DNA of 64,000 bases. Origin: Clostridia bacterium. Lineage in GTDB: Bacteria; Bacillota; Clostridia; Oscillospirales; CAG-272. The stretch lies in assembly GCA_900763885.1 (NCBI GenBank), contig CAAFLY010000247.1, positions 383 through 64,382 on the forward strand, given 5' to 3'. Shown one piece after another: positions 21,921-55,010 of this stretch (its first letter is position 1; each line of letters starts with the position of its first letter). The position numbers were made by a program, and so were the translations under genes. The notes beneath the pieces were generated by a model, which had not been told where the DNA came from, ran no database searches, and saw only the letters and a program-made list of their open reading frames with translations.

Positions 21921-23996
21921 TCATTCCTCCCACTTCCCGGCACCGCGGCAGTACAGGATCCATCGCGCCCGATCCAGGGGATTGACGCCGCGTCTGGGCG
22001 TTTCATGCATCTCTCCCGCGGGGCATTCGCTGTAGCCATAGAAATCCGACGCGCACGACGCCTTGCCGGAGGTGGTGGACGCGATCCAGACCGAGAAATA
22101 CATCGTGGTCGCAAGCGGGAGGATCGCCTCGATGGACGCGGTATCGCCCGTCACGACCGGTGTATCGTAGGTCCCGCGCCGACTCGTGATCTGCGAGAGA
22201 ATCTTGCCGGATAGCTCCATGGGGCAGGTGATCCGCCAGCGCATGAGCGGCTCAAGCAGCGTGGTCCCGCATGCGACAAGTCCGTTCATGAACGCCATCG
22301 GGGTGCAGACGAAGAAGTCGAGCGGGTGCGTATGGATCGTGTGATGCTCGCCGCCGATGAGATCGCACCGGAAATCCGTGACCTCCCATCCGTGCAGGCC
22401 CTGCGCGAGACATTCCCCGAACGAACGGCGGATGTGGCTCTGGTACCGATAGAAAAGCCGATTGGACGGCAGTCTGCCATGATAGGACACGCCGTATCCG
22501 CGCGGCATGGGGGTGAATTTGAACTGCACGACCGCCCAGCACGGCTTCGGCATGGTATAATCGGCGTAGGCGATCCCCTCGCGCGTCGGCGTTTCCTTAT
22601 AGATAACGGTCGGATCGGAGAAGACCGCGCGCTTGCCGTACCGTTCCCACAGAAGGTTCTCAAGGATCTCCTGCTGCACGCCGCCGGTCAGTCGCACGAC
22701 GATCTCGGACTGGCCGTTTTCCCATTTCGCGTCGAGGTACGGCTCCTCCTCGGACAGCTCCCGCATCGCGTTTGCCAGCGACGGCAGGGCTTCTCCGGGC
22801 ATTTTCGCTTCGTCCTGCGCGGATGGCTTAACCTGCACGGACAGCAGCGGATGGGCAAGGCGGGCGGCATGGCCTCCGGTGACCTCTCCGACAAAATTGC
22901 CGCATTTCGCCCCGGTCAGACCGCACAGCACGCCAATATCCCCGGCGGTGACCGAACCCGCGTCCACGAATCTGCCCCCGTTTTGCACATCGGCGCGGCG
23001 GATCTGGGTGATCTTCCACGGTGCGGCAGGCGTATCGTCCTCCACGGGAACAGCGTCGTCCGGCTCGGGATCGGCGGTGGCGGGATCGGTTTGTGCGGCG
23101 GGATCGATGAGGGTGACGGAATCGCGGCTTTTGAGACTTCCCCCGAACAGGCGGATATACGCCATCTTGCCCATGGCGCGGTCGTGCTCGATCTTGAAAA
23201 TCACGCCGGAGAGGGCGTCCGACGCGCGACAGGCGGCGTCCGGCATGAGATCGGTGCAGAAATCGAGCAGCTCCGCGACGCCCGTGCCGTTTTTCGCGCA
23301 TCCCCAGAGAATCGGCGTGATCCTGCAGTCGCGGATGGCGGATCGCAGCTTTTCGCGCGCCACGGCGTCCGGCAGGGTGGTATCGGTGAGGAAGGCTTCC
23401 TCCGCGTCGGGATCGATCTCCGCGAGTGCCTCCGTAGCGGCCTGCGCCAGCGTGCGCGGGTGGATCATCGCGGCGGCGGTGCCAATACCGGAGACGGATT
23501 GCGCGTGCATATACGCCATGTGCGGTCCGGTGATACGGCGTAACGCGGCGGGCAGCGTGGCGGAATCGGGGGCGGAACGCTCGGCTCCCGCGCGGTCGAT
23601 CTTATTGACGAACAGGACACGCGGGGTGTGGCAGGCGTCGAGGGCGCGGAGGATATTTTCGGTATGCGCGCGCACGCCGTCCGGGGCGGATACGACGACA
23701 ATGGCAATATCCAGCGCGCCAAGACACCGCTCGACCTCCCCCGCGAAATCGACATGGCCGGGGGTATCGATGATGTTGACCGTCTTGCCGTGCCAGAAGA
23801 GCGACGCGGTGGCCGCCCGGACCGAGATCCCGCGCTCCCTCTCGACGGACAGCGAATCGGTGCGCGTGCTGCCGTTGTCCACGCTCCCCGCCTCCCGGAT
23901 GCTCCCCGCCGCGTACAGCATCCGCTCCGTCAGCGTGGTCTTTCCGGCGTCTACGTGCGCAAGGATCCCCAAATTCAAAAATGCACTCGCTGGCAT
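21921..23996 (-). CDS. TetM/TetO-family ribosomal-protection-type translational GTPase (divergent)
   Basis: 691 aa. N-terminus LGILAHVDAGKTTLTERMLYAAGSIREAGSVDNGSTRTDSLSVERERGISV..NIIDTPGHVDF..NKIDR aligns to the Tet(M)/(O)/(W) G domain. C-terminus PRRGVNPLDRARW parallels PRRPNSRIDKVRY. Confidence 0.65.
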   Translation of the reverse strand: MPASAFLNLGILAHVDAGKTTLTERMLYAAGSIREAGSVDNGSTRTDSLSVERERGISVRAATASLFWHGKTVNIIDTPGHVDFAGEVERCLGALDIAIVVVSAPDGVRAHTENILRALDACHTPRVLFVNKIDRAGAERSAPDSATLPAALRRITGPHMAYMHAQSVSGIGTAAAMIHPRTLAQAATEALAEIDPDAEEAFLTDTTLPDAVAREKLRSAIRDCRITPILWGCAKNGTGVAELLDFCTDLMPDAACRASDALSGVIFKIEHDRAMGKMAYIRLFGGSLKSRDSVTLIDPAAQTDPATADPEPDDAVPVEDDTPAAPWKITQIRRADVQNGGRFVDAGSVTAGDIGVLCGLTGAKCGNFVGEVTGGHAARLAHPLLSVQVKPSAQDEAKMPGEALPSLANAMRELSEEEPYLDAKWENGQSEIVVRLTGGVQQEILENLLWERYGKRAVFSDPTVIYKETPTREGIAYADYTMPKPCWAVVQFKFTPMPRGYGVSYHGRLPSNRLFYRYQSHIRRSFGECLAQGLHGWEVTDFRCDLIGGEHHTIHTHPLDFFVCTPMAFMNGLVACGTTLLEPLMRWRITCPMELSGKILSQITSRRGTYDTPVVTGDTASIEAILPLATTMYFSVWIASTTSGKASCASDFYGYSECPAGEMHETPRRGVNPLDRARWILYCRGAGKWEE

Positions 23997-24142
23997 GGTA
24001 TACCTCTCTATCGCTTATGATTTGGTACAGGGGACGCGCTGGCAGAACCCTTCCCGAAAAGGGCCACACCCCCTCCAAAAGCGTTTCTATCGGGGAGCTG
24101 GTGCCGTCCGCGTCCGTTATTTCTGTTTTCGGCCTTATTCTC

Positions 24143-24171
24143 ATTATACCAAAATTGTTGACAATATGCAA
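24143..24171 (-). promoter_or_regulatory. Sigma-A-type promoter (TTGCAT-17-TATAAT) for the TetM-like gene
   Basis: Minus strand: TTGCAT (24171-24166), 17-nt spacer, TATAAT (24148-24143); about 140-nt leader to ATG 23996. Confidence 0.55.
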
Positions 24172-24219
24172 GCGCAAAAAAGATGCTCGACCGGCAGCGG
24201 ATCGGGCATCCTTTATGGT

Positions 24220-25815
24220 TTACAGGGCTTCGTAGATCCTTGCCCCGCGTTTGTAGAGCCAGATCCACAGTGCTGCTGCAGCGGCGATGGTGACGGCGGT
24301 GACAGGGAGGAGATACAGCACGGCGTTGACCGGCCCCGGGAAGAGGAAATACACGATCACGGCAGCCGCACCATAGATCCAGCCGCCAAAGAGGCAGAGG
24401 AACACGGGCAGGCTTTGCTTGATCGGGATATTTTCATTCGACCAGGTGAGGTTCGGGTGCTTGAGATTGAGGGCCAGACCGAGCGCGGCGGAGAAAAACA
24501 CGTAGGCGGTCGCGGCGGCAAGGAGGAGCACGGTCTGGAGGATGGTCAATCGCAGTCCGATGGCGGCGCAGATACAATAAAGCGTCATCGGCACCGCGGT
24601 CAAGGCGACGTGCAGCCAGAGCTTGGCGCGCAAAATCTGCCACGCGGTGACGGGGAGGGACCTCGCGATCCAGAGATTTTTCCCTTCCAGAGAGACGGAG
24701 GGCGCGGAGATGTCGTTCATGGCGGCGAGGGCAAACGCACCCCCGACGGCAAAAACAACGGCTGCCTCCGCGGTACCGAGAAGCTCCGGGATCATCTCCG
24801 CGAGCATACCGCCCTTCCAGAGGAGCAGCACGGCGCAGATCGGGATGAGGAGGATCGCCATTCCGCAGTTGAGCATATAGTTCGCGCTGCTTGTAAAGCG
24901 GAACGCTTCGCGCCGGAGGAGAGCCATATCGGGAGAGTGGACCTTTTCCCTGCCGGCGACATACGCCTTTTTCCCGATGTTCTGCGGTGTGGTGGCAAGC
25001 CGGATGAAGCTATGGGCGATGAGGTACGCGGTGAGGACGACGAGCAGGACGGTGACGGCGGTGACGGACACGATGGCAAGGGGATCGCCGGTGCCCATTT
25101 TGCCGATGGCGTAGAGGGGATACGCCGCGCCCCGGATCTTCGCGCCCACGACAGCGGCATTGGCGACCAGCTCCGTGATCATGGACTGCGCGCGGAAGTA
25201 GACGAGGTAGTACAGACCGATGAACACCAGGGAGGCAAGCACGGTGATCACGCTCTTATGGCGCAGCTTGACGGAGATCTTCGCGACGACCCAGCCGAGC
25301 AGGCACGACAGCACCAGCACGAACAGCGTCACGCACACGACAAGCAAAATCGACCCGACGACGGCAAGCGGGGTCACGGGGACGGTCACGAAATAGACGA
25401 TCACGGCGGGGATGATGACAATCCCGGAGTACATCAGACCCATGAGGTACACGCCGAGGAGTCGGGACACCATGATCGCGCGCACGGGGATCGGCATGGA
25501 CAAGAGCAGGTCGTTGTCCCTGGCAAGGTACAGGCTCGCGAACGTATTGAACACGCTGCCGAATACACCGAGCGCTATGGAGATCATGGCGATGAGCAAA
25601 AAGTACAGCCACGGTACGCCGGCGTCCGACAGCGGTCGGCACAGGCTTATGGCAAAATACGTGAAGATCCCGCCGAGCACGCCGACGATCAAAAACGCGT
25701 ACAGGACAAACAGCCCGATCACAGCCCCCTTCGAGCGTGCCTTGTTCTTTTTCGCGTCATAGAAATACATCCGAAACATTTCGGCCATCTGTTTTTTCAA
25801 TAGAATCTTTATCAT
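24220..25815 (-). CDS. ABC exporter permease (large ABC-2 / 'putative ABC exporter' type)
   Basis: 531 aa from ATG 25815 (RBS AAAGGA, 9-nt spacing); at least 12 TM segments. Presumed partner of the ATPase at 28244-28948. Confidence 0.7.
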   Translation of the reverse strand: MIKILLKKQMAEMFRMYFYDAKKNKARSKGAVIGLFVLYAFLIVGVLGGIFTYFAISLCRPLSDAGVPWLYFLLIAMISIALGVFGSVFNTFASLYLARDNDLLLSMPIPVRAIMVSRLLGVYLMGLMYSGIVIIPAVIVYFVTVPVTPLAVVGSILLVVCVTLFVLVLSCLLGWVVAKISVKLRHKSVITVLASLVFIGLYYLVYFRAQSMITELVANAAVVGAKIRGAAYPLYAIGKMGTGDPLAIVSVTAVTVLLVVLTAYLIAHSFIRLATTPQNIGKKAYVAGREKVHSPDMALLRREAFRFTSSANYMLNCGMAILLIPICAVLLLWKGGMLAEMIPELLGTAEAAVVFAVGGAFALAAMNDISAPSVSLEGKNLWIARSLPVTAWQILRAKLWLHVALTAVPMTLYCICAAIGLRLTILQTVLLLAAATAYVFFSAALGLALNLKHPNLTWSNENIPIKQSLPVFLCLFGGWIYGAAAVIVYFLFPGPVNAVLYLLPVTAVTIAAAAALWIWLYKRGARIYEAL

Positions 25816-25837
25816 AATCAAAAATCCTTTATATGGA

Positions 25838-25938
25838 AGAGGGGAACGCGGCTTCTTGAGAACGAACTTGTTCGTTCCAGCCTTGGCAAGAACTTTTATA
25901 AATGGATGGGATTGACTTTTGTTTGTGCAGGTCCGGGG
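25838..25938 (+). repeat. Left arm of the element pair bracketing a 2.4 kb insert
   Basis: GGGGAACG, GCGGCTTCTTGAG-[GAACGAACTTGTTCGTTC hairpin]-CCAGCC, TTGGCAAGAACTTTTATA, ATGGATGGG, TTTGTTTGTGCAGGTCCGGGG. Confidence 0.75.
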
Positions 25939-26053
25939 CAGCGTTTGGGTTGGCTTGTTTGGCGATCACGCTTGATATGGGAGCGAACCGGCTATCGCAG
26001 GCGTTATTGGGGTGGGAACTTTATGTTTCTATCGCCGATTGCAATGTGCGGCC

Positions 26054-26629
26054 TCACTCGAAATTCGCCTTACACCACGGACAGCGGCGGCGGCCGGGGT
26101 TGATGAAGTTGCCGCAGACGGGGCAGAGATACTCCGCGTCGTCGGGGATGGGGCATTTCATGGGATATTTCAGACCGCGGAGGACGAGAACTCTGTCGCC
26201 CGGCTTATAATAAATCTCATTGGCGAGGACGCTTCTCTCCTTATAGGTGACACACAGCCGCTCGCCGTGGTCGCCGTCAAACACCACATCCGCCGTGGAG
26301 ACCTCCATTTCCCGCATCTGCTTCCACGTCATCGGCCCGGTCAGAGCTTTGAAGGTGGAGGAATATTTCGCGGAGACGACGGAGGCGTAAAAGGTTTTGC
26401 CGCACAGCGTGTTCTGCACCCGGAGCGGATAGAACGGCAGCACCCACAACAGCGGAAAGACAAAATTGGAGGGGGAGGTGAAGCCGCGCGCGAAATGGAC
26501 GGCGGTATACAGCCACGCGGCAAGCACCAATAGGATCCAGCCGATGGTCAGGGCAAGCACCCGGAGGTATCTGCGGTTTCCAAGGGCAAGCAGCTTGCGT
26601 TCGGTCTCAGGCGGGAATCGTTCTTTCAT
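26054..26629 (-). CDS. Hypothetical membrane protein with a C-terminal zinc ribbon
   Basis: 191 aa; two N-terminal TM helices, beta-rich middle, CPVCGNFINPGRRRCPWCKANF at the C-terminus. Confidence 0.6.
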   Translation of the reverse strand: MKERFPPETERKLLALGNRRYLRVLALTIGWILLVLAAWLYTAVHFARGFTSPSNFVFPLLWVLPFYPLRVQNTLCGKTFYASVVSAKYSSTFKALTGPMTWKQMREMEVSTADVVFDGDHGERLCVTYKERSVLANEIYYKPGDRVLVLRGLKYPMKCPIPDDAEYLCPVCGNFINPGRRRCPWCKANFE

Positions 26630-26654
26630 GGGAGGAACTCCTTTCTGTGGTCTG

Positions 26655-27917
26655 TTATCCTTTGTAGTAATAGCTGTCTGACTTTTCTTTTTCCCGGAGA
26701 CACCCGGTCAGATAGACATGCTGTCGTCTGACCTCATGGCGGCACCTGCGATAGAGGAAGAAATTGTACAGGCTGAAATAGAGGACATATATGATAAGGA
26801 AGACAGCGGTATCGACCGGGGATAGGCTGTGGTGGACGAAGATCGCCTCATACTTCCCGGCTGGATTGACATAGGCAATCGTGTAGAGGAGATACGTCAC
26901 GGGAGAGGTGAGTACGCCATACGCCGTGAACGGCAGCGGAATAAGCCCGACAAGGAACCGGAAAATCTCCCCGCCAAGCATCAGCCGCACCGCTTTTTTG
27001 TACCACCATTTTTCTTCATCCCGCAGAGAATACAGCTTCGGAACCACGGACGTCAGATAGCGATGAATAAGAAAGCTGGGGAGCAGCGCCGCCACCGGGA
27101 GTGTGCATAGGGCTTGCAGAACCGCATGGGTCGCACTCCCCTGCCACATGGACAAAAGCGAGGTAAAGCACAGGATGTAGTAATAGGCGGCAAGCTGCGC
27201 GCCGAGAGAAACCGCGGCGAATTTGCAGCGATCAACGGCGGTAACGTCTCTTTGGTAGTAGAAATCCCGCTTTATGATCTGTTCGTTCTGTGTCATTCCA
27301 TCTGCTCCGGATATATCCGCAGTCAGATTTTTCTTCTTGCATTCGCCCTCATACCCCCGCCATACTCTCTCAAACAACAGATAGAGCACGGCAAGCGTTA
27401 TGAGAAAATATACAAAATATACCGCGTGAAACGCGAGATGATCTGCCGCTATATATCCGGATTCCCGAATGGCGGAAAGACGGTTACGCGGTGACATGTA
27501 CACTATGTCGTAAAGGAAATTCGGCAAGAACGCGAATACGCCTTCAAAAAAACGATACCCAAATTCTAAGATATGTCCCGGTTCTGTCGGCAGGGACACA
27601 AGGATCCACCGCATGATCTCCGCAGGCAGCACCACACGGAGAAAGGTATCAAAAATCATCCGCCGTGAAGATACGCCATCGCCGCACTTCGGGACAATAT
27701 CGGGAATCTTATACCGGAAATATAACCACGTCAGGATTGGTGTACCGGCTATCAGAACTGCAAGGAAAAGCACAAGAACAAGCAAGCGATTGCTCGTGAC
27801 CGTTCGCAGCAGGGAAAGCACTACCAACGCCGCAATCGTCCCGCCAAGATTCGCAAGCATCATGACGACCCCATACTTCACCGTATCCCGAGCCGTAACA
27901 TTCCTCTTTGGATTCAT
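26655..27917 (-). CDS. Hypothetical polytopic membrane protein made of two homologous approximately 200-aa halves
   Basis: 420 aa from ATG 27917 (RBS GAGGAG). The halves share the order RD(T/V)..hydrophobic, (R/W)..(FLRVVLPAEI/VRLMLGGEIF), Y-rich TM pair and basic tail. Visibly AT-richer than its neighbours. Confidence 0.6.
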   Translation of the reverse strand: MNPKRNVTARDTVKYGVVMMLANLGGTIAALVVLSLLRTVTSNRLLVLVLFLAVLIAGTPILTWLYFRYKIPDIVPKCGDGVSSRRMIFDTFLRVVLPAEIMRWILVSLPTEPGHILEFGYRFFEGVFAFLPNFLYDIVYMSPRNRLSAIRESGYIAADHLAFHAVYFVYFLITLAVLYLLFERVWRGYEGECKKKNLTADISGADGMTQNEQIIKRDFYYQRDVTAVDRCKFAAVSLGAQLAAYYYILCFTSLLSMWQGSATHAVLQALCTLPVAALLPSFLIHRYLTSVVPKLYSLRDEEKWWYKKAVRLMLGGEIFRFLVGLIPLPFTAYGVLTSPVTYLLYTIAYVNPAGKYEAIFVHHSLSPVDTAVFLIIYVLYFSLYNFFLYRRCRHEVRRQHVYLTGCLREKEKSDSYYYKG

Positions 27918-28128
27918 ACTATTCTCCTCATTCGTAAGCCACATACGGAAACGCACCAAACCATATCCTGAGCGCACATCCCTACGTCGTCAAACGATCC
28001 AGCCGAACCGCCACCTTACGATAGCGCTGTCACAAACGACAAAAACCTCCTCACAATACAACCCGAACACACCACAGCCAACCAAGGTCGCAGCCCATCC
28101 GTCCGACTCAGTCAAAGCCAAAACTCCA

Positions 28129-28240
28129 CCCGGACCTGCACAGACTATATCCAGTCCCTTTTCATAAAAGTTTTGGGAGGTGTCGGAACCTTTTTGAAAA
28201 AAGGTTCTGACGTCGTTCTCCCCGTATCCCCCGTTCCCCC
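28129..28240 (-). repeat. Right arm of the element pair bracketing the 2.4 kb insert
   Basis: CCCGGACCTGCACAGACTATATCC, TTCATAAAAGTTTTGGG, palindrome GAACCTTTTT-G-AAAAAAGGTTC (28186-28207), C-tract cap CTCCCCGTATCCCCCGTTCCCCC ending 3 nt before the ATPase stop. Confidence 0.8.
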
Positions 28241-28243
28241 AAG

Positions 28244-28948
28244 TTATTCCTCCAGCTCCAGGAATACGTCCTCGAGCGTGTCGTCGCCTTTGACCTCCGC
28301 CATCGTGCCGGAGCGGATCAGTCGACCGCCTTTGATGATCGCCACCTTGTCGCAGAGCTTTTCGGCGACCTCCAGAACGTGCGTCGAGAAGAAGATCGCG
28401 CCGCCGTCCGCGCAATGCTCGCGCATCATGCCCTTCAGGGTATGCGACGCGACCGGGTCCAGTCCCACAAACGGCTCGTCCATGAGGATCAGCCGCGGCG
28501 TATGGAGCCACGCAGAGAGAATCGCCAGCTTTTGCTTCATGCCGTGGGAGTACGCCGCGATCGGGTTCGCAAGATCGGCGGTCAGCGCGAACATCTCCGC
28601 GTATTTCGCGATCCGCGCGTCCCGCTCCGCCTTCGTCACCCCGAAAATGTCCGCGATGAAGTTCAGATACTTCTCGCCCGTCATAAAATCGTAAAGATCC
28701 GGATTGTCCGGGATGTACGCTAGCTGCTTCTTCGCCGAGAGCGGATCCGCCCGGACCGACACGCCGCAGACCGTGATCTCGCCCTCCTCAAACGGCAGAA
28801 TCCCCACCACGGCTTTCAGCGTCGTCGTCTTGCCCGCGCCGTTGTGGCCGATGAAGCCGTAGATCTCCCCGGGTGCGATGTGCAGCGACAGATCGTCCAC
28901 CGCCAGCTTCTCCCCGTACCGCTTTGTCAAATGTGTAATCGTCAGCAT
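28244..28948 (-). CDS. ABC transporter ATP-binding protein
   Basis: 234 aa from ATG 28948. Walker A GHNGAGKTT, signature YSHGMKQKL, Walker B LILMDEP. Confidence 0.9.
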   Translation of the reverse strand: MLTITHLTKRYGEKLAVDDLSLHIAPGEIYGFIGHNGAGKTTTLKAVVGILPFEEGEITVCGVSVRADPLSAKKQLAYIPDNPDLYDFMTGEKYLNFIADIFGVTKAERDARIAKYAEMFALTADLANPIAAYSHGMKQKLAILSAWLHTPRLILMDEPFVGLDPVASHTLKGMMREHCADGGAIFFSTHVLEVAEKLCDKVAIIKGGRLIRSGTMAEVKGDDTLEDVFLELEE

Positions 28949-28993
28949 ATGTTCTTCCCTTTCCGAGGATTTGCCCTCGTGTCCTATATCATA

Positions 28994-29022
28994 AGTATAC
29001 CACATCCGCTTCTCGAAGTCAA
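28994..29022 (-). promoter_or_regulatory. Sigma-A-type promoter for the ABC ATPase (TTGACT-17-TATACT)
   Basis: Minus strand: TTGACT (29022-29017), 17-nt spacer, TATACT (28999-28994). Confidence 0.55.
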
Positions 29023-29134
29023 TAGACCGCGTGTAAAATTCCCTTGATATTTTTGCGCATAAACGGCGGGATCCCGCGGCACACCGACCGGAAGGCCGAC
29101 CGCTCCGCCGCGAAACCCGTGCCATACCACTACC

Positions 29135-29172
29135 AAAAACACAGCGTATCCCGTCCGCGGAAATACGCTGTG
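29135..29172 (-). terminator. Intrinsic terminator after the SBP gene
   Basis: Minus strand: CACAGCGTAT-loop-ATACGCTGTG followed by TTTTTGG. Confidence 0.7.
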
Positions 29173-29196
29173 CTTTTCTGTGCTTATGTGTCCCGC

Positions 29197-30699
29197 TTAT
29201 TCGAGCGTCTCAAACGCCTCGAGCAGTGCGGGGAGCTTCTTTTCGGACAACTCGACCTTCTTTGCCAGCGTGGAGGCGCCCTTGGAGGTCTTCGAGTTGT
29301 TGATGTGGTTGCGCGGGATCTGGATCAGGTCGGCAAGGCTTGCGGAATATACGTAGCCGAAGTCGAAGCGCACGCCCGCGTGGATGAGATCGAGCATCTC
29401 CGCGGTGGCGGTGTCGCGCGCCAGCTTGCCCTTGATCGTCGTCTCATAGTACGCCAGCGTGCAGGTCCGGTACGATTCCGCGCACAGGGCCTCCAGGGTC
29501 GCCGCGGCGATATCCGGAGTGGCGCACGTCACCGGGATGCAGAACACGGAGAAGCCGTTGTGCGTGAAGCCGCAATAGTTCTGCTGTGCTTCGTCGTACT
29601 TCGGACACGGCAGGATCATGTAGTCCGCCTCCATGTCGCGCAGGGAGTCGGTCAGGCTCAGGCGGAAGATCGTCATCAGCGCGGTGTCGTCCATGAGCTT
29701 GTTCGCAAGATCGACGTACTCCTGCTTGATCGCGTAGTTGTTTTCGTAGAAGAGGACCTGCGCCTTTTCGATGAAGCCGATCGTCTTTTCGCTGTTGAAC
29801 ACGATCTTCAGCGTGTCTCCCTCGTTCTCGACCAGCGGAATGTCAAACGAACCGACCAGCGCGTCGTTGACGATGCCGACCGCGTCCCGGATGAAGCCGT
29901 AGATGTCGCCCACATCCGCCTTGCCGTCGCCGTTTACGTCGTGGTAGATGTCCGCAAGCCGGAGCACCTCGTCGTACGTCCAGCCGCCGGCGCGTACCGT
30001 TTCATACGGATCGTAGCCCGTGTGGTACTCGTTCAGCACGGATTTGTTCAGGATCGTCACGTATGTGCCGCGCAGCATCGTCTGGCTGATGTCGCCCGCC
30101 GCCATGTAGTTCTTGCCGTTCAGCGTGATCTGCTCGCGGAAGGACGGATTCCACCACGGCATTTCAAAATCGAGATACGGCTGCGCGTTCAGATTGAGAA
30201 AATACTGCTGCAGTACGTACGGCGTCATCTGGCTCATGTGGCTCGCGATGAGGTCGTACACGGGGTCGCCCGCGTTGATGGCAGCCGACATCAGTACCTT
30301 GATCTGGTCCATGCCGTGGATCTCATCGGTCGTTCCCACGTAGGTAAGCTTGACGTTCAGCCGATCCTCTACGGAGATGTTCCGGTTGAAGATGGAGGAA
30401 TCCACCACGTCGCCGGTGTTGTCCGCTGTGATCTCGACCTGCACGTCATGGTCCCCGCCGCGGTGGAGAATGCAGATCTCCTCGCCGCCGAAATCGAGAT
30501 CCATGGGCAGCGTGTCGGGCGTGTTTTCACGGCCCTGCACCGTCTCTTCCTCTTTTTCCGTATCCGTCGAGAGCGCCTCGGACGGCGTTGTTTCCGTGCC
30601 CTTGGTCTCGTCGCTCCCGCTCTGTCCGCAGCCGGTGAAGGTAAGGGAGGACGCGATCATCAGCGCCGCGAGAATCGTTACAAATGTAGCTTTTTTCAC
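29197..30699 (-). CDS. ABC-transporter solute-binding lipoprotein (tandem paralog A1)
   Basis: 500 aa; GTG start 30699 (RBS GGAG); lipobox FTGC; closely similar along its whole length to 30812-32311. Confidence 0.8.
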   Translation of the reverse strand: MKKATFVTILAALMIASSLTFTGCGQSGSDETKGTETTPSEALSTDTEKEEETVQGRENTPDTLPMDLDFGGEEICILHRGGDHDVQVEITADNTGDVVDSSIFNRNISVEDRLNVKLTYVGTTDEIHGMDQIKVLMSAAINAGDPVYDLIASHMSQMTPYVLQQYFLNLNAQPYLDFEMPWWNPSFREQITLNGKNYMAAGDISQTMLRGTYVTILNKSVLNEYHTGYDPYETVRAGGWTYDEVLRLADIYHDVNGDGKADVGDIYGFIRDAVGIVNDALVGSFDIPLVENEGDTLKIVFNSEKTIGFIEKAQVLFYENNYAIKQEYVDLANKLMDDTALMTIFRLSLTDSLRDMEADYMILPCPKYDEAQQNYCGFTHNGFSVFCIPVTCATPDIAAATLEALCAESYRTCTLAYYETTIKGKLARDTATAEMLDLIHAGVRFDFGYVYSASLADLIQIPRNHINNSKTSKGASTLAKKVELSEKKLPALLEAFETLE

Positions 30700-30720
30700 A
30701 ATTTTCTACTCCTTTTATTC

Positions 30721-30777
30721 AAAAAACGCCTGTGGTATTGCCAAATCAAGTATACCACAGGCGTTTGATTTTGTCAA
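30721..30777 (-). promoter_or_regulatory. Overlapping terminator hairpin and TTGACA-17-TATACT promoter
   Basis: Minus strand: TTGACA (30777-30772), TATACT (30754-30749). A 14-bp stem AACGCCTGTGGTAT/ATACCACAGGCGTT plus TTTTTT spans 30766-30721. Confidence 0.6.
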
Positions 30778-30811
30778 GGTGTCCGGAAAAATTGCGAATG
30801 TGAATCCCGCA

Positions 30812-32311
30812 TTATTTCAACTCGTCAAAGGCGGCGAGCAGCTCCGGCAGCTTTGCCTCGGACAGCGCGACCTTCGTAGCCAGAATGGACGCGCCCTTGG
30901 AGGTCTGATTGTTGTTGATGTGGCTGCGCGGGATCTGGATGATGTTCTCCAGGCTTGCGGAATATACGTAGCCGAAGTCGAAGCGGATGCCCTCGTGGAT
31001 GAGGTCGATCATCTCCGCAGTCTCCCCGTCGCGCGCCAGCTTGCCCTTGACCGTCGTTTCGTAGTACGCCATCGTGCAGTGCCGGTACGATTCCGCGCAC
31101 AGTGCCTCCAGCGTCGCCGCGGAGATGTCCGGATTGGCGGCGCTCACCGGAATGCAGAATACGGAGAAGCCGTTGTGCGTGAAGCCGCAGTATTTCTGCT
31201 GTGCCTCGTCGTACTTCGGGCAGGGCAGGATCATGTAGTCCGCTTCCATGTCGCGCAGTGCCTCGGTCAGGCTCAGACGGTAGATCACCATGAGCGCGGT
31301 GTCGTCCATGAGCTTGTTCTGCAGCTGATCGAATTCCTGCGAGATCGCGTAATTGTTCGTGTAGCACAGCGTCTGCATCCGTTCGATGAAATTGATGGTC
31401 TTTTCGCTGTTGAATACGACCTTCAGACCGCTGCCGTCGTTTGTCACAAGCGGAATGTCGAACGAGCCGATCAGCGCGTCGTTGACGATACCGATCCGGT
31501 CGCGGATGACGCCGTAAATGTCGTTCTCATCCGCCTTGCCGTCGCCGTTTACGTCGTGGTACATATCCGCCAGACGGAGGAATTCGTCAAACGTCCAGCC
31601 GCCGGAGCGCACCGTATCGTAGACGTCGTATCCGTTGTAATATTCGTCCAAAACGGCCTTGTTCATGATCGTTACATACGTGCCGCGCAGCATCGTCTGG
31701 CTGATGTCGCCCGCCGCCATGTAGTTCTTGCCGTTCAGCGTGACCTGCTCCTTGAAGGACTGGCTCCACCACGGCATATCGAAATCGAGGTACGGCTGCG
31801 CGTACAGATTGTAGAAATGCTGCGTCAGCACCAGCGGCGTGGTCTGGCTCATGTGGTTCGCGAACAGATCGTATACCGGATCGCCTGCCGCCACCGCCGC
31901 CTTGACCAGATCGTTCGTCGTGGGACCGTTGTGGATGTCGTCCGTGGTCGGCTCGTACTGCAGCTTGATGTTCAGCCGGTCCTCCACAGCGATGTTCCGG
32001 TTGAAGATGGAGGAATCCACCACGTCGCCGGTGTCCTCCGCCGTGATCTCGACCTGCACGTCATGATCGCCGCCGCGGTACAGGATCCGGATGTCCTCGC
32101 CGCCGAAATCGAGATCCGCGGGCAGGGTGTCGGGCGTGTTTTCGCGGGTGATCTCACCGTCGTCGATGCTCTCCGATTCGGATTCCGGCGCGGTCTCTGT
32201 CTTTTTCGTCTCTGTTTCTTCCTCGTTCCCACCCTGTCCGCAGGCGGTCATCCCAACCGCGGACGCGAGCATCAGCCCGGCAAGAATCGCAGAAAATACT
32301 GCCTTTTTCAT
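30812..32311 (-). CDS. ABC-transporter solute-binding lipoprotein (tandem paralog A2)
   Basis: 499 aa from ATG 32311 (RBS GGAG); lipobox MTAC. Confidence 0.8.
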   Translation of the reverse strand: MKKAVFSAILAGLMLASAVGMTACGQGGNEEETETKKTETAPESESESIDDGEITRENTPDTLPADLDFGGEDIRILYRGGDHDVQVEITAEDTGDVVDSSIFNRNIAVEDRLNIKLQYEPTTDDIHNGPTTNDLVKAAVAAGDPVYDLFANHMSQTTPLVLTQHFYNLYAQPYLDFDMPWWSQSFKEQVTLNGKNYMAAGDISQTMLRGTYVTIMNKAVLDEYYNGYDVYDTVRSGGWTFDEFLRLADMYHDVNGDGKADENDIYGVIRDRIGIVNDALIGSFDIPLVTNDGSGLKVVFNSEKTINFIERMQTLCYTNNYAISQEFDQLQNKLMDDTALMVIYRLSLTEALRDMEADYMILPCPKYDEAQQKYCGFTHNGFSVFCIPVSAANPDISAATLEALCAESYRHCTMAYYETTVKGKLARDGETAEMIDLIHEGIRFDFGYVYSASLENIIQIPRSHINNNQTSKGASILATKVALSEAKLPELLAAFDELK

Positions 32312-32422
32312 ACGTTGCTCCTTCATGGCATTCCGCGGGAATACGCTGTCATACCGTCTTCTTTGTGCAAAAATCCGACATATCCAAAGCGCATTCTCCG
32401 TTATTTTGTTGTGTGCACCTGT

Positions 32423-32451
32423 AGTATAGCACAGCGAGCGACACTTGTCAA
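32423..32451 (-). promoter_or_regulatory. Sigma-A-type promoter (TTGACA-17-TATACT)
   Basis: Minus strand: TTGACA (32451-32446), 17-nt spacer, TATACT (32428-32423). Confidence 0.55.
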
Positions 32452-32515
32452 CGTGCATTTCCCAAAAACTGCTACAAAAAACGTTTCTGTTTTTGAGATT
32501 CTGACGGCACGGGAC

Positions 32516-33700: not shown

Positions 33701-33729
33701 TTTTGTAAACCTCCGTGATTGTAGGAAAT

Positions 33730-34007
33730 GATACGGTCGCTTTTGAGAACGAACCCTCTCGCCCCAGCGCCCGCAAAGCTTTTGTACATAAATGGGTTGT
33801 ATTGCAAGTGTGCAAGTCTGGACAAAGTAAACGAAATTTGCCCAGACAGCACGCTGTGTAACAAAGAATACCGCCTACCATAAGACGGAGCAGACGCAAA
33901 CCGAAAGAACCAAATCCCCTTATGAAAATCGCACAAATTATACCCTGTCCTTTTTCATAAAAGTTTTGCGGAGCTTTTTCAAAAGCGACCGTTCCCCTCG
34001 TTCCCCC
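33730..34007. repeat. Short (about 280 bp) paired copy of the element
   Basis: Left arm GATACGGTCGCTTTTGAGAACGAAC..CGCAAAGCTTTTGTACATAAATGGG..GTGTGCAAGTCTGG. Right arm TTCATAAAAGTTTTGCGGAGCTTTTTCAAAAGCGACCGTTCCCCTCGTTCCCCC ends on the nt before the SBP stop (34008). Confidence 0.8.
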
Positions 34008-35456
34008 TCACTGCAGCTGCGCAAATGCCTCAGCGGCGGCAGCCATCGCGGCTTCGGCTTTGGGCTTGACTTTTTCCCATCTGGAGACGAAGTCGGTGTT
34101 TTTGGACTGGAACATACTGGTAATCATTTCCGCGGAATTGCCCCAGTTGAAGATCAGACCGAGGTCGTATACGCGGGTCGCGAAGAGGATGTCGAGCATC
34201 TCGCCGGATTCCTCGTCGCGGACGTAGCGGGATTTGAGCGCGCTGTCGTAATAGGCGGCGGTCAGGGTGTCAACGGCGTAATACGCCATCGCCTCAAGGG
34301 TCGCGCCGGTCATTTCGAGGTCGGTATTGTTGTAGGGAATGCTGGCGGTCGGCACAAGCCCGGTGCTGATCAGGTTGTTGTATTCGGCCTGCGCCTCGTC
34401 GTACATCGGATAGGGGAGGATGCCAAAGCCGTATTCCGAATCGCGCAGTCCGCTGATGTCCGTCAGAGCGAATGTGACGAACAGCACGCGCCCCTCGTTG
34501 AACATTTCCGTCGCGGTCGTGTAGTCCGGACAGTGCAGCGCGTCCTCGCCGAGACAGAGCTTGAAGGTCTTTTCCATCACGTCCGCACAGCGGGATGAGC
34601 CGAAGCCGAACTGCAGATTGCCGTCCGCGTCTCTGTCCACGATCCGTTCCCCGGACGCGATGTAGAACGATACCGGCGCGTTGAACGCCGCGGTCATGCC
34701 CCACGCGTCCTTGCTTGTCATTTTGCCGTCGCCGTCCACGTCATGGGTCACAGCGGACGCCAGCTCCCCGACCTTGTCGATCGTCCACCTCTTCTCGCGC
34801 ACCAGCTCGTACGGGCTCTCGAGGGAGTAGTCCGTGATGAGGTCCTTGTTGAAAAACATGACCATCGTGCATTCGTTGTCGAGGATGGAAATATCCCCCG
34901 TCGAGAAGAACACTTTGTTCGCGATCACCATGTCCTTCGTCACACGACCGTCCCACCACGGCTTCTCCAGCGCCAGATACGGCACCGCGGACAAATCCGT
35001 CAAAAGGCCCTCGGTGGCGAGATCGATGGCGCGGTTCATGTACGGCATCACTACGTCAAACGTCGTGTCCCCGGCGACGAGATTGCTGCGCGCGACCTTT
35101 TCCGCGTCCGGCTGCTTCGATTCCGCGATCCGTACGCCGAGCGCCTTTTCCACCTGCCCGTTGCGCACGAATACCGCGTCGTTGAGCAGCTGCCCGTTCA
35201 TCTCGTCCGTGTAGATCTCGTAGCAGGAGTATTGATCCAGACCCGCGTTCTGCACCGTCAGGAACATCACGTCCGCGTCGCCGTAGTTTTTGTCCGGCAG
35301 CTCCACCGTGATCTCCGTTTCGACAGGCGCGGTATCGGCAGCCGTGTCTGCACCGGGCGCAATGCCGTCGGTTTCAGACTCCGTTTTGCCGCCCGAGCAG
35401 GCAGTCAGCAGCATGGCGGCAAGAAGAAGGGAGAGAATGCGTTTGGTCGGTTTCAT
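34008..35456 (-). CDS. ABC-transporter solute-binding lipoprotein (tandem paralog B1)
   Basis: 482 aa from ATG 35456; lipobox LTAC; closely similar to 35582-37027. Confidence 0.8.
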   Translation of the reverse strand: MKPTKRILSLLLAAMLLTACSGGKTESETDGIAPGADTAADTAPVETEITVELPDKNYGDADVMFLTVQNAGLDQYSCYEIYTDEMNGQLLNDAVFVRNGQVEKALGVRIAESKQPDAEKVARSNLVAGDTTFDVVMPYMNRAIDLATEGLLTDLSAVPYLALEKPWWDGRVTKDMVIANKVFFSTGDISILDNECTMVMFFNKDLITDYSLESPYELVREKRWTIDKVGELASAVTHDVDGDGKMTSKDAWGMTAAFNAPVSFYIASGERIVDRDADGNLQFGFGSSRCADVMEKTFKLCLGEDALHCPDYTTATEMFNEGRVLFVTFALTDISGLRDSEYGFGILPYPMYDEAQAEYNNLISTGLVPTASIPYNNTDLEMTGATLEAMAYYAVDTLTAAYYDSALKSRYVRDEESGEMLDILFATRVYDLGLIFNWGNSAEMITSMFQSKNTDFVSRWEKVKPKAEAAMAAAAEAFAQLQ

Positions 35457-35498
35457 GATAAAGCCTCGTTTTTCTATGATGATACAGATACTCCTATC

Positions 35499-35527
35499 AG
35501 GATAGCAGATTCCGCCGTGTTTGTCAA
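35499..35527 (-). promoter_or_regulatory. Sigma-A-type promoter (TTGACA-17-TATCCT)
   Basis: Minus strand: TTGACA (35527-35522), 17-nt spacer, TATCCT (35504-35499). Confidence 0.45.
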
Positions 35528-35581
35528 GAGGTTGCGCGAAATTCATTCCTTTTTACCCCACCTGCCCCCTCCCATATGGGG

Positions 35582-38141: not shown

Positions 38142-38214
38142 TGGAGCATAGGGGGATCGAACCCCTGACCTCAAGATTGCGAACCTTGCGCTCTCCCAGC
38201 TGAGCTAATGCCCC
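38142..38214 (-). tRNA. tRNA-Ala (anticodon CGC)
   Basis: 73-nt cloverleaf GGGGCAT-TA-GCTC..GAGC-G-CAAGG-TTCGCAA-TCTTG-AGGTC-AGGGG-TTCGATC-CCCCT-ATGCTCC-A. Has the G3:U70 identity pair; CCA is not encoded. Confidence 0.95.
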
Positions 38215-41068: not shown

Positions 41069-41172
41069 CCGGCCCTGCACAAACTAGACCTGAATCCATC
41101 CCCTCATAAAAGTTTTGCGGAGCTTTTTCAAAAGCGACCGTTCCCCCGTTCCCCTCGTTCCCCGCGTCCCCC
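41069..41172 (-). repeat. Arm of the element abutting the comM-like stop codon
   Basis: CCGGCCCTGCACAAACTAGACC..CTCATAAAAGTTTTGCGGAGCTTTTTCAAAAGCGACCG plus four C-tracts (41143-41172); stop codon at 41174. Confidence 0.8.
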
Positions 41173-44645: not shown

Positions 44646-44672
44646 AATTTTGTATCTCCGTGGATTTAGAAA

Positions 44673-44930
44673 GGGGGAACGAGGGGATACGGTCGCTTTT
44701 GAAAAAGCTCCGCAAAACTTTTATGAAAAGGTTGTATGGATTTCGTTTGTGCAAATCCATGTGCGCACCCATACAGCTCCGTCCCCACTGACTTTAGTCA
44801 GTGACCCGACAGGTATCGTTCGCGAGCGGCTCCCATGCGTTTAGCTTGCTAAACTCCGTAATCCGCTTTCTACGGGAGCAATTGCGTCCATGGATTTATT
44901 TTTAGTGGCAGGATGCCTCAATTACAGTTT
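44673..44930 (+). repeat. Solo long arm of the element
   Basis: GGGGGAACGAGGGGATACGGTCGCTTTTGAAAAAGCTCCGCAAAACTTTTATG..TTTGTGCAAATCC..ATCGTTCGCGAGCGGCTCCC..ATCCGCTTTCTACGGGAGCAATTGCG..AGTGGCAGGATGCC. Collinear with the long arms at 10264 and 50581. Confidence 0.75.
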
Positions 44931-50551: not shown

Positions 50552-50580
50552 TTTATGTAATCCTTTAATTTCTGGTGACT

Positions 50581-54943: not shown

Positions 54944-55010
54944 TTCCCCAGTATAAAAGTTTTGCCAGGCTTTTCCAAAAGCCGCGTTCCCCCGTCCCCG
55001 TTCCCCCCCC
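54944..55010 (-). repeat. Solo arm of the element between rplR and rpsE
   Basis: CCCCAGTATAAAAGTTTTGCCA, palindrome GGCTTTT-CC-AAAAGCC (54968-54983), GCGTTCCCCCGTCCCCGTTCCCCCCCC. Confidence 0.8.

Follow-up and report, generated by a model that had tools for sequence, protein, structure and literature searches.

An inserted membrane-protein module bordered by inverted intergenic repeats separates the ATPase and permease genes of an ABC exporter in a Clostridia bacterium

Introduction

Integron mobilisation units and the mobile insertion cassettes of Bacillus cereus carry bracketed cargo comparable with the locus described here. In Acinetobacter, identical MITEs flank class 1 integrons (PMC10969869). 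Such MITE-bracketed systems resemble this locus in having inverted, non-coding copies placed around passengers that lack a transposase, and in belonging to a family that is high-copy, intergenic and polymorphic among strains. They have identical or nearly identical flanking copies, a target duplication and occurrences at several sites or in several species, whereas here the flanking copies are about 70% alike, no target duplication was seen and the unit occupies one locus.

The flanking repeats are also comparable with the mosaic intergenic repeats REP/BIME of the enterobacteria, BOX, RUP and SPRITE of the pneumococcus, and Correia/NEMIS of Neisseria (reviewed in PMC10969869). All are modular hairpin repeats that fill the narrow gap from a stop codon to the following RBS, are tolerated within operons in both orientations, and have solo and paired forms. 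Inverted Correia copies in one transcript pair for RNase III, and the two arms described here could pair likewise. Unlike these repeats, the present family is unrelated to any Rfam family and its arms are long (about 100-300 nt).

The inserted DNA between the repeats resembles horizontally acquired operon islets in being lineage-restricted, atypical in composition, mosaic in identity and without its usual regulator. It differs from a typical islet in lacking an integrase, a tRNA target and direct repeats, in having host repeats around it, and in its exact position between genes that overlap or abut in most relatives. The interrupted genes are clear orthologues of the PF16949/PF09847 exporter pairs, which have a large 12-TM permease. 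The locus lies in a 64,000-nucleotide stretch of a Clostridia contig, called the window below; relatives are labelled L followed by a number.

The exporter locus

An earlier note made from the sequence alone described a co-oriented ATPase and permease split by 2428 nt, with two genes between them and a repeat arm at each edge. This layout was confirmed, all four genes being on the minus strand (Table 1). The outer arm ends do lie near gene ends, as that note had it: the C-tract (plus strand) stops 3 nt from the ATPase stop codon, and GGGG at 25841-25844 caps the other end about 22-25 nt from the permease ATG. The top NCBIfam match of the ATPase is the DrrA-type subfamily. The permease falls just below the Pfam cut-off of 25.7 bits for PF16949, and many of its 4437 homologues have precomputed PF09847 and/or PF16949 hits. 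By domains, both parts of this exporter class, an ABC_tran ATPase and a multi-span PF16949/PF09847 permease, are present, the latter marginally sub-cut-off.

Table 1. Features of the exporter locus and of one related repeat element, with positions in the window
Feature	Position	Strand	Remarks
EF-G-like gene	21921-23996		next gene after the permease
Intrinsic-terminator-like hairpin followed by T-run	24188-24204	-	just 3' of permease stop; scan and reading
ABC-2-type exporter permease, 531 aa	24220-25815	-	PF16949, 24.1 bits
Short spacer with the permease's own putative RBS (AAAGGA, 9 nt before ATG)	25816-25835	-	outside left arm; read from sequence
Left arm, inverted relative to right arm	25836-26018	+	nhmmer match 25836-25944, E 1.6e-15
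191-aa protein with C-terminal CxxC...CxxC zinc ribbon	26054-26629	-	third module member
420-aa polytopic membrane protein, fusion of two paralogous ~215-aa proteins	26655-27917	-	BLASTP
Right-arm interior, G+T-rich, TTGGTTGGCT ... GCTATCGTAAGGTGG	27951-28124	-	5' leader of 420-aa gene
Right arm, family core	28125-28240	-	nhmmer match 28230-28125, E 2.3e-16; outer end 3 nt past ATPase stop
ABC transporter ATP-binding protein, 234 aa	28244-28948	-	PF00005, E 6.6e-26
Promoter-like site TTGACT, 17 nt, TATACT, with TG	28994-29022	-	upstream of ATPase; top consensus match in 23900-29300
Cargo-free two-armed element with unlike arms	33720-34014	-	between SBP gene stop and oxidoreductase gene RBS; outside the insert

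The premise that the ATPase and permease genes are normally adjacent held in 78/78 of the more distant species-level relatives fetched (ATPase 74-84% and permease 47-55% identical to those of the window). In each of them the ATPase match ends at most about 70 nt from the permease match, mostly 5-10 nt; where the junctions were read, the true spacer measures between 0 and about 65 nt, and several have an ATPase stop that overlaps the permease start or directly touches it. A profile search found no copy of the repeat family in any of the 78. The earlier note had looked to relatives without the repeats for the same four-gene order as a sign that the inserted genes are native to the operon; repeat-free relatives lack both genes, which favours insertion.

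The two inserted genes are confined to the closest relatives (permease 75-100% identical), at the same locus each time. Loci with a permease 83-100% identical have the arms and both cargo genes; L097 (75%) has both arms and the 191-aa gene alone, its 420-aa gene being deleted; L099 (73%) has a 200-nt ATPase-permease spacer and no cargo; and the spacer of L098 (62%) is 54 nt. The L099 spacer holds no statistically recognisable arm, and its stretch before the permease has a weak, RBS-proximal similarity to the corresponding spacer of the window (score 17; shuffles 12.3 +/- 2.2). No intermediate with a repeat element and no cargo at this junction was found among the relatives compared. What interrupts this ancestrally contiguous and widely conserved ATPase-permease pair is a derived insertion, specific to one lineage.

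The permease is unusually variable among close relatives (73-100% amino acid identity), and the ATPase is 97-98% identical in the cargo-bearing loci. The insert has 95-100% nucleotide identity between species that are 80-90% identical in their permease and EF-G-like genes, an excess that suggests horizontal exchange. Mosaicism in the region is not limited to the insert, as a 2.9 kb stretch elsewhere is 98.7% identical.

The inserted module

Residues 1-196 of the 420-aa protein resemble a 213-aa type of membrane protein and residues 208-420 a 216-aa type; by BLASTP it is 46% identical (E 1e-52) to the product of L084 8716-9357 and 66% identical (E 2e-107) to that of L084 9354-10004. Its family comprises 55 clusters among 1.84 billion representatives and includes fused and split forms. 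A word-indexed search that returned only a 98% twin had made it look like an orphan gene, a reading overturned by exhaustive HMMER searches and direct comparison. A GAGGAG RBS for this gene lies at about 27925-27930. The co-oriented 191-aa gene follows after 25 nt, and its product is predicted to have N-terminal hydrophobic helices and a mixed helix/strand middle before the zinc ribbon. Homologues of this protein (58-61% identical) are encoded directly 3' of 213/216-type genes in L084, L085, L086, L088, L091 and L092, and the four cysteines are invariant in the alignment. On these comparisons the cargo appears to be a rare accessory module, made up of two ~215-aa membrane proteins and a 191-aa zinc-ribbon protein, in a truncated and partly fused copy.

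The pair first described simply as two genes of unknown function is thus better seen as a recurrent three-gene module in fused form, although the databases indeed assign it no function: Pfam, NCBIfam, PADLOC, PHROGs and PDB sequence searches of the cargo were negative. The AF2 model of the 420-aa protein (pLDDT 82) has no fold match in the PDB (best E 0.86, TM 0.2 or less), and that of the 191-aa protein (pLDDT 65.6) was too poor to use.

The module stands by itself elsewhere in Clostridia, as a low-GC island that frequently follows a MerR-family gene. Its homologues were found in four other contexts, never within an ABC operon and never with the arms. In L084 it forms a 3.2 kb island of 37-50% GC in a genome of 60-66% GC, and no convincing inverted or direct repeats surround it there or in L088. 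The MerR-family regulator gene is missing from the window copy, and no remnant of it was found in the right-arm interior.

The 420-aa gene is indeed AT-richer than the flanking ABC genes and the 191-aa gene, as the earlier hand counts had suggested: its GC is 0.49-0.53 and its GC3 0.54-0.66 (0.54 and 0.66 for the two halves), against a GC of 0.59-0.61 and GC3 of 0.77-0.84 for the ATPase, permease and 191-aa genes. Across the cargo, GC3 runs 0.54, 0.66 and 0.77, compared with 0.82-0.84 for the genes on either side. By itself a low GC3 says little about foreignness, because the ribosomal-protein genes of the window also have values of 0.65-0.70; a candidate second cargo in the low-GC3 region at 45-49.5 kb is in fact the alpha ribosomal operon. 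Judged by restricted distribution, atypical composition and unrelated contexts together, the cargo is a compositionally and phyletically foreign, horizontally acquired islet. Our working guess is that it encodes a small membrane complex, now constitutively co-expressed with the exporter because the MerR-type regulator was left behind.

The flanking repeats

Matches to an nhmmer profile built from 13 window copies confirm that the two arms belong to one repeat family and are inverted relative to each other. The right arm consists, in order, of G-tracts (GGGGGAACGGGGGATACGGGGAGAACG), a 10-bp hairpin (GAACCTTTTT/AAAAAGGTTC), CCAAAACTTTTAT and GGATATAGTCTGTGCAGGTCCGGG, and is orthologous in L002, L004, L005 and L093-L097; arm and interior align over 295 nt (score 42.5) with a solo copy that sits between putative rplR and rpsE and has its outer end at 55011. 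From its outer end inward, the left arm has GAGGGGAACGCGG, a compound hairpin (GGCT..GAACGAAC/GTTCGTTC..AGCC), CAAGAACTTTTAT, GTTTGTGCAGGTCCGGGG and an interior with GGCTATCGCAGG, in which L002 and L004 have 18- and 75-nt deletions. Its closest non-orthologous relative is the solo copy L005:15315 (score 64). No cargo-bearing relative lacks either arm, and this extends to L097, the most divergent of them.

The arms carry different hairpin types, and the GGGGAACG-type motif at both outer termini is their sole common terminal motif. Aligned locally with each other they score 29, at about 70% likeness over some 80 nt, against 35-64 for each arm with other non-orthologous family members and 117-162 for true palindromic pairs; they are no closer than random family pairs, and no special kinship is seen. 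The shared 13-mer GTGCAGGTCCGGG, which had been taken as an argument that the arms belong together, does occur exactly twice in the window, at 25925-25937 (+; one nucleotide off the position first given for it) and 28129-28141 (-), but it lies within the family's conserved GTGCARGTC box and, with up to 2 mismatches, has 8 window matches against 1.8 expected. In 8 orthologous loci the arms differ by 1-3 nt at the 13-mer, so that the identity is specific to this window; the changes, apparently compensatory, are better explained by a short gene-conversion tract here. Specific long-range RNA pairing of the arms was also considered and rejected: although the duplex of right and left arm is strong, at -102 kcal/mol compared with -59 for shuffled sequences, other copies are better partners for the right arm (-94 to -127 kcal/mol).

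The family has about 15 copies in the 64 kb, at 12/52 gene junctions. It is non-coding, dispersed and mosaic, with modules comprising G-tracts, a hairpin, AAAACTTTTAT and the GTGCARGTC box; outside this clade a single copy was found, in the L084 genome. The G-tract end always faces the neighbouring gene, and the outer ends are (GGGGAAC)n tracts of variable unit number that look, from their sequence, able to form G-quadruplexes, a feature that is not known to occur in REP/BIME, BOX/RUP/SPRITE or Correia/NEMIS. Copies in the ribosomal-protein cluster lie between adk and map, 3' of the putative L18 gene and 5' of the S8 gene, and there is a weak match between secY and adk. A copy after the MFS gene stop in L005 is absent from the window, L004 and L002, and one between the permease and EF-G-like genes in L002 and L004 is absent from the window and L005. 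The family is or was mobile, since sister species do not all share the same copies at orthologous sites; no consistent target duplication is visible between the filled and empty sites at these two junctions. Dispersed intergenic copies, conserved modules, a terminal inverted structure and this polymorphism place the arms among MITE-like or mosaic intergenic repeats. Motifs of the family are absent from the searchable literature.

Other roles for the family were considered and set aside. Canonical copies contain a sigma-70-like TTGAAA, 17 nt, TATGAx, but the -35 element is not kept in the two arms, and copies are not consistently pointed at the downstream gene. As terminators they lack a T-run after the hairpin, and some lie within the ribosomal-protein cluster. 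No Rfam match reached a gathering score, and relaxing the threshold to E 1 brought up nothing above chance level; RNAalifold gave no consensus fold for the hairpin module, because the hairpins differ by insertions and deletions.

Three two-armed copies in the window are cargo-free: 10263-10934 (arms 89% complementary over 141 nt), 50578-51100 and 33720-34014. The last has the layout of the cargo locus minus the genes, namely stop codon, G-tract arm, inverted arm, about 20 nt with an RBS, and ATG. In its L005 orthologue (300-645, also cargo-free) the left half matches the right-arm region with a score of 49.5 and the right half matches the left-arm region with a score of 58, shuffles scoring about 13. 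That each arm matches one half of such an element supports descent of the pair from one original two-armed element; two independent solo insertions are also conceivable, since the arms are not each other's closest relatives.

Transcription and translation

No promoter-like or terminator-like site was found at the scan thresholds on the coding strand of the arm regions, and read-through from the ATPase promoter is therefore plausible. The earlier note had the permease depending either on read-through or on a promoter supplied by the insert; the former half is the plausible one, the consensus scan having found nothing promoter-like in the arms for the latter. The site upstream of the ATPase likely drives the whole four-gene unit, and the four genes probably form one transcript that starts there (29022-28994) and stops at the terminator-like site (24204-24188). 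Read-through of the arms is probable too, and is presumed for the family copies inside the ribosomal-protein cluster. The EF-G-like gene appears to have its own promoter-like TTGCAT, 17 nt, TATAAT, read by eye from the alignment; the scan upstream of it flagged only a weaker overlapping site (24164-24137). The ATPase-permease pair is interrupted and its genes are no longer adjacent, and translational coupling is therefore no longer possible; the permease would be translated from its own RBS.

Tests of mobility

The flanks of the unit read TAA-CTT|GGGGG and CCCC|TCTTCC, with at most 3 nt in common (CTT against TCTT), and no target duplication around the whole unit is discernible; this comparison is made with no close empty site, the L099 spacer being too diverged. 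All cargo homologues at >=90% identity with readable flanks lie between this ATPase and permease, in >10 independent contigs and species, and no second arms-plus-cargo copy was found among them. The single exception to this one-locus pattern is L087, a 2.2 kb JGI contig in which a junction 8 nt into the 191-aa gene joins it to AT-rich DNA of clearly lower G+C (by eye); it is most likely chimeric and was not accepted as a second context. Phage, plasmid and IMG/VR collections gave no hits to the cargo, and no transposase-like gene was found among the window proteins scanned with Pfam (a subset of the ORFs in 64 kb of the genome). A composite unit needs near-identical flanking copies, so that both ends can be worked on by one transposase, and the arms at about 70% fall short of that; it also needs the same unit at different loci or on unrelated replicons, and this one occupies a single locus. 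A search for the cargo genes flanked by the same arms elsewhere, suggested in the earlier note, found the module without arms in other genomes, including one that carries the repeat family. The structure appears to be fixed at one locus, with no sign of current mobility.

Family copies bracket 5 gene blocks in the window against 5.4 expected, in several orientation combinations, so bracketing as such is at chance frequency and not a signal. Only 1/5 of these blocks has inward-facing arms, an arrangement in favour of a single two-armed element; it is the cargo locus, the one block examined for lineage-specific insertion and shown to be one.

Origin of the insertion

The earlier note proposed a composite cassette, in which the arms would be terminal inverted repeats and an external transposase moved them with the cargo into the junction. 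What stands is a foreign insertion bracketed by inverted family members; that the arms mobilised or captured the cargo left no sign and is unproven, and we consider this origin unlikely. It would account for the inverted arms with outward G-tract ends, as in the cargo-free copies 10263-10934 and 50578-51100, and for the terminal motif common to both; the family is polymorphic between species and hence is or was mobile, and MITE-bracketed cargo is known (the class 1 integrons of Acinetobacter; PMC10969869). It is opposed by arms that resemble each other like random family pairs, a 13-mer identity limited to this window, no visible target duplication, cargo at a single locus and in none of the phage, plasmid and viral collections, and a module without arms in a genome that has the repeats. 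A native four-gene operon, with both membrane proteins as ancestral exporter partners lost elsewhere, could explain why the genes are co-oriented and tightly packed with no promoter or terminator found between them by the scan. It is effectively refuted: both genes are absent from 78/78 distant relatives, where several stop/start junctions are direct or overlapping, homologues of the module never occur in ABC operons, its composition is atypical, and the 420-aa gene is dispensable in L097.

Another explanation is that the module entered by an illegitimate or homologous insertion independent of the arms, that solo repeats later invaded each junction, and that their inversion is coincidental. 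This is possible though rather unlikely. Nearly a quarter of junctions are occupied, blocks of 1-2 genes are bracketed at chance frequency in several orientations, each arm has a close solo relative (L005:15315 for the left, 55011 for the right) and the hairpin types differ; but occupation of both junctions (about 0.23 squared) with inward orientation (about 1 in 4) has a probability of roughly 1%, each half of a cargo-free two-armed element has its counterpart in one of the arms, and both arms are retained in all cargo-bearing relatives. We lean towards a history in which the foreign module lodged inside, or arrived with, one two-armed repeat element at the exporter junction, where it is now fixed and probably read through. 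The junction would already have been opened into a spacer with its own RBS; an element of the 33720-34014 type would then have occupied that spacer, or come in with the cargo; and the module would have ended up between the element's arms. A broader extension, that G-tract-capped two-armed elements are landing pads or vehicles for foreign genes, is very doubtful. On that view their long palindromic centres would break and capture DNA, or the arms would be mobilised with whatever lies between them.

Significance

Two things newly flagged here are uncharacterised: a rare membrane-protein module and a very dense family of G-tract-capped intergenic repeats. This locus shows cleanly how a tightly packed operon of two genes can be pried open in nature and yet kept. 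Under the history towards which we lean, the order of events would be a spacer, then repeats, then a foreign module that lost its regulator and came under a host promoter. If the arms are mere bystanders, this is an ordinary small horizontal insertion. If the elements do act as landing pads, it would be the first cargo-bearing copy of an undescribed non-autonomous gene-capture system able to enter tightly coupled operons, and if the repeats had any part in capturing or carrying the module, they would constitute a new route by which small accessory genes enter the operons of gut Clostridia.

An insertion within an ABC exporter operon

In the window, the ABC ATPase gene and the permease gene downstream of it lie 2428 nt apart, and all genes across 21.9-37 kb, including these two, are on the minus strand. 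The permease has 4437 homologues, many of which carry precomputed PF09847 and/or PF16949 matches. On the right, the intervening segment ends in a C-tract that stops at 28240, 3 nt from the ATPase stop codon; on the left there is a GGGG at 25841-25844, the ATG of the permease being some 22-25 nt away. The arrangement described in an earlier note (the genes, the gap, the tract caps, the inverted arms and an AT-rich larger gene) is present in the sequence in every part, and the 420-aa gene indeed has a GC content of 0.49-0.53 and a GC3 of 0.54-0.66, compared with a GC3 of 0.77-0.84 in its neighbors.

A scan with the permease, using one genome per GTDB species, gave 80 loci. At all 78 with 47-55% permease identity, the permease directly follows an orthologous ATPase (74-84% identical), and several of these junctions have the ATPase stop codon overlapping, or right next to, the permease start (one reads CTGGAG-GGAGAGGA-ATG). 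Besides the window, extra genes are found only in L004, L005 and the Logan/ENA contigs L002 and L093-L097, invariably between the same ATPase and the same permease. Across relatives of intermediate distance the junction changes by degrees: L098 (62% permease identity) has a 54-nt spacer; L099 (73%) has a 200-nt spacer with no cargo and no recognizable arm; L097 (75%) has the 191-aa gene with both arms, but its 420-aa gene is deleted; and L002, L004, L005 and the window (83-100%) have both arms and both genes. This graded series argues that the junction was already open, with a separate permease ribosome binding site (RBS), before or apart from the insertion. Relatives without the repeats do not keep the order ATPase, 420-aa, 191-aa, permease, which the earlier note had named as the mark of native operon members, and insertion is thereby favored. 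The 2.4 kb segment is a derived insertion into an operon that in most relatives has its two genes overlapping or end to end.

At least one lineage, L097, can do without the 420-aa gene. There the whole gene is lost between the right-arm interior and the RBS of the 191-aa gene, and about 30 nt containing a promoter-like TTGTTGTATAAT stand in its place.

Among close relatives (L002, L004, L097 and L099) the permease is 73-100% identical in amino acid sequence, whereas the ATPase is 97-98% identical in the cargo-bearing loci, and around 25800, close to the beginning of the permease gene, nucleotide identity drops abruptly (0.93 to 0.81-0.84). Such variability suggests either that divergent alleles have been swapped through recombination or that diversifying selection is at work. 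The genes upstream of the ATPase vary as well: the window has two tandemly duplicated gene pairs, and L093 and L094 carry an HTH_3 gene and two ~65-aa genes instead.

Features of the locus, the repeat family and related loci (window coordinates unless a contig is named)
Feature	Position	Strand	Remarks
ABC ATPase	28244-28948	-	Clear ABC_tran domain
Right arm	28125-28240, interior to 27951		Adjoins ATPase
420-aa gene	26655-27917	-	Cargo
191-aa gene	26054-26629	-	Cargo
Left arm	25836-26018		Adjoins permease
Large ABC-2-type permease, 531 aa	24220-25815	-	PF16949 24.1 bits, slightly below cut-off
13-mer GTGCAGGTCCGGG, left	25925-25937	+	
13-mer GTGCAGGTCCGGG, right	28129-28141	-	
Promoter-like site	29022-28994	-	TTGACT, 17 nt, TATACT, with TG (consensus scan)
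Terminator-like hairpin and T-run	24204-24188	-	Consensus scan
Duplicated gene pairs	29197-32458, 34008-37027	-	72-90% nucleotide identity; repeat families D1-D3, D6, D9, D12; two members scanned gave weak solute-binding-protein matches, below Pfam cut-off
tRNA gene	38142-38214	-	RF00005, 63.6 bits; sole gathering-score Rfam match in window
Two-armed inverted pairs	10263-10934, 50578-51100, 33720-34014		
Copies in ribosomal-protein cluster	50578-51100, 51983-52078, 54720-55011, 56490-56580, 44665-44775		
Outer caps	10263-10300, 28215-28240, 41140-41162, others		Variable GGGG(A)AC(G) runs, e.g. GGGGAACGGGGAACGGGGGAACGG
420-aa gene deletion	L097 380-440		About window 26650-28073
Cargo-free element	L005 300-645		Window 33720-34014
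Permease/EF-G-like junction copies	L004 7418-7575, L002 4270-4413		Tandem GGAACGAACAAG(G/A)TCG units
MerR-213-216-191 module	L084 7400-10600		Low-GC island
Related module	L086 2346-4561, 11544-14561		

The cargo genes and their module

A word-indexed search with the 420-aa protein found one cluster, at 98% identity, and the protein might have passed for an orphan; the contexts of homologues of the 191-aa protein (58-61% identical) overturned that. In these contigs two overlapping genes come ahead of the 191-type gene; their products, of 213 and 216 aa, are paralogues of one another. The 420-aa protein shares 46% identity with the 213-aa protein over residues 1-196 (E 1e-52) and 66% with the 216-aa protein over residues 208-420, which open with an internal Met (E 2e-107); since both halves match separate small proteins, the 420-aa gene is a fusion. 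An exhaustive HMMER search of 1.84 billion representatives returned only 55 clusters, with fused (414-427 aa) and split forms among them.

Elsewhere the module is arranged as MerR-213-216-191 (L084, L085), MerR-205-191 (L088), 233-211-194 (L091, L092) or 124-213-216-195 (L086), where MerR stands for Pfam MerR/MerR_1 matches, and in none of these contexts is it within an ABC operon. In L084 it forms a sharp 3.2 kb island of 37-50% GC, with a GC3 of 0.44-0.53 against 0.83-0.87 in the other genes. The contexts outside ABC operons and the low-GC island indicate a recurrently transferred accessory cassette. The L086 contig also has primase (D5_N/DUF5906), toxin-antitoxin (PIN-MazE) and mobilization (Mob_Pre) genes, which suggests carriage by a mobilizable element. 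No plasmid or phage record was found to hold the module, and beside the window cargo there is neither a MerR-family gene nor a detectable remnant of one. Low GC3 alone is no proof of foreign origin, since ribosomal-protein genes at 45-48 kb also have a GC3 of 0.65-0.70; the argument is carried by the phyletic pattern and the L084 island.

With regard to function, the cargo had no match in Pfam, NCBIfam, PADLOC, PHROGs or a PDB sequence search. The AF2 model of the 420-aa protein is confident (pLDDT 82) and all-helical, and matched no PDB fold; that of the 191-aa protein is too weak for use.

The repeat family

The arms belong to a family with about 15 copies in the window. From the outside inward, a copy consists of a run, itself variable, of GGGG(A)AC(G) units, a hairpin of no fixed sequence (GCTTTT/AAAAGC, GGCTTCTT/AAGAAGCC or GAACCTTTTT/AAAAAGGTTC, in one variant with an additional GAACGAAC/GTTCGTTC hairpin nested within), a nearly invariant (G)CAAAACTTTTAT, then GGATATAGTTTGTGCARGTC, and an interior of at least two kinds. 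The outer runs have 3-5 G-tracts with 3-4 nt spacing, a match, as a pattern only, to the canonical G-quadruplex on the inward-facing strand, and by their sequence look able to form one. The hairpin module seems to grow and shrink through duplication of palindromic units; tandem units are found at the permease/EF-G-like junction in L004 and L002. Some copies are solo arms; others are inverted pairs of two arms whose G-tracts point outward.

A profile search found the family in the window and its close relatives (L001-L005 and L097), with one clear copy in L084 and none in 78 more distant genomes; neither Rfam nor the searchable literature contained a match. Repeat copies occupy 12 of 52 gene junctions, the G-tract end lying 0-10 nt past a stop codon or about 20-30 nt ahead of a start codon. 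Several of them are in the ribosomal-protein cluster, where the adk-map junction holds a complete two-armed copy, others follow the putative L18 gene and L17, one precedes the S8 gene, and the secY-adk junction has a weak match. Such dense colonization of a conserved ribosomal-protein cluster is unusual, and would mean that the elements tolerate read-through transcription. Sister species differ by gains or losses of copies; the family is therefore mobile, or once was. It is an undescribed, very dense, G-tract-capped repeat family.

Relationship of the arms to the cargo

The 13-mer that the earlier note used as an argument for pairing the two arms does occur exactly twice in the window, the left copy 1 base from where it had been placed, but this argument fails: the motif comes from a box that is conserved across the family. 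At this site the eight orthologous loci have GTGCAA(A/G)TCTGGG in the right arm and GTGCAGGTCTGGG (in L005, GTGCAAGTCTAAG) in the left, and only in the window are the arms identical. Compared with all relatives, the window has T to C at position 10 in both arms and an additional A to G at one or two positions in the right arm, most simply explained by a short gene-conversion tract between the inverted arms. Over their length the arms align with a score of 29 (shuffles 13 ± 2), below the 35-64 of each with other, non-orthologous copies and the 117 and 162 of true pairs. An arm-arm RNA duplex has a predicted energy of -102 kcal/mol (shuffles -59 ± 7), and the right arm pairs more strongly with other copies than with the left arm.

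How the cargo came to lie between them can be read in three ways. Blocks of 1-2 genes bracketed by occupied junctions number 5 against 5.4 expected, in several orientation combinations, and bracketing as such is not unusual. Two independent solo colonizations would account for the unlike arms, and for each arm a close relative exists as a solo copy: the right arm matches, over 295 nt, the one at 55011, which lies downstream of the putative L18 gene, and the left arm matches one at L005:15315. The cargo locus is, however, the sole inward-facing block of the five, and the only one shown to be a lineage-specific insertion (the one block to which that test was applied); by our own arithmetic the chance that both junctions of a given insert are occupied in inward-facing orientation is roughly 1%. 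Both arms are kept in every cargo-bearing relative, including the most divergent, L097, and a cargo-free element in L005, between solute-binding-protein and oxidoreductase genes, has unlike arms in the same layout: its left half matches the right-arm region (score 49.5 over 142 nt) and its right half nearly all of the left-arm region (score 58 over 183 nt). These three observations favor a link between arms and cargo. We therefore regard independent colonization as unlikely, and think it somewhat probable that the cargo lay inside, or arrived with, a single two-armed element.

The composite mobile cassette proposed in the earlier note, taken as true transposition by the arms, appears distinctly improbable. 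The copies on either side fall short of near-identity, the insert ends show no visible target duplication (flanks TAA-CTT/GGGGG and CCCC/TCTTCC, the slash marking the boundary), and no collection searched held the insert at a second locus. The L084 module has no arms around it, though that genome carries the repeat family. In L087 (OGUO01017538.1), a 2.2 kb JGI contig, AT-rich DNA encoding ABC-2-like permeases adjoins the 3′ end of a 99% identical 420-aa gene; the junction (nt 470-480) comes 8 nt inside the 191-aa gene, which makes a chimeric contig probable, and if real it would be a second context for the 420-aa gene. Nothing indicates current mobility of the insert. Between species at 80-90% identity in the permease and EF-G-like genes, the insert reaches 95-100%, which points to homologous recombination as the route of a recent exchange, although mosaicism is general in the region and the permease for its part varies to an unusual degree.

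Expression of the four genes

With a good promoter-like site upstream of the ATPase gene, a terminator-like hairpin beyond the permease gene, and no site of either kind at scan thresholds on the coding strand of either arm region, the four genes probably form one transcription unit in which the arms are read through. The 420-aa gene has its own RBS (GAGGAG), the 191-aa gene starts 25 nt later, and the permease, no longer directly after the ATPase, has a separate RBS (AAAGGA). A foreign module without its MerR-type regulator would thus be co-expressed with the exporter.

Comparison with other intergenic repeats

In Acinetobacter, class 1 integrons have identical MITEs on both sides (PMC10969869). 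The present locus resembles such MITE-bracketed cargo in kind, but its arms are not near-identical; a second likeness is to the mosaic intergenic repeats known as REP/BIME, BOX and Correia. The locus is an islet gained by horizontal transfer, set within an operon and with intergenic repeats of the host on both sides. The insertion itself is ordinary; what deserves to be followed is the repeat family, and with it the possibility that its two-armed copies trap genes.
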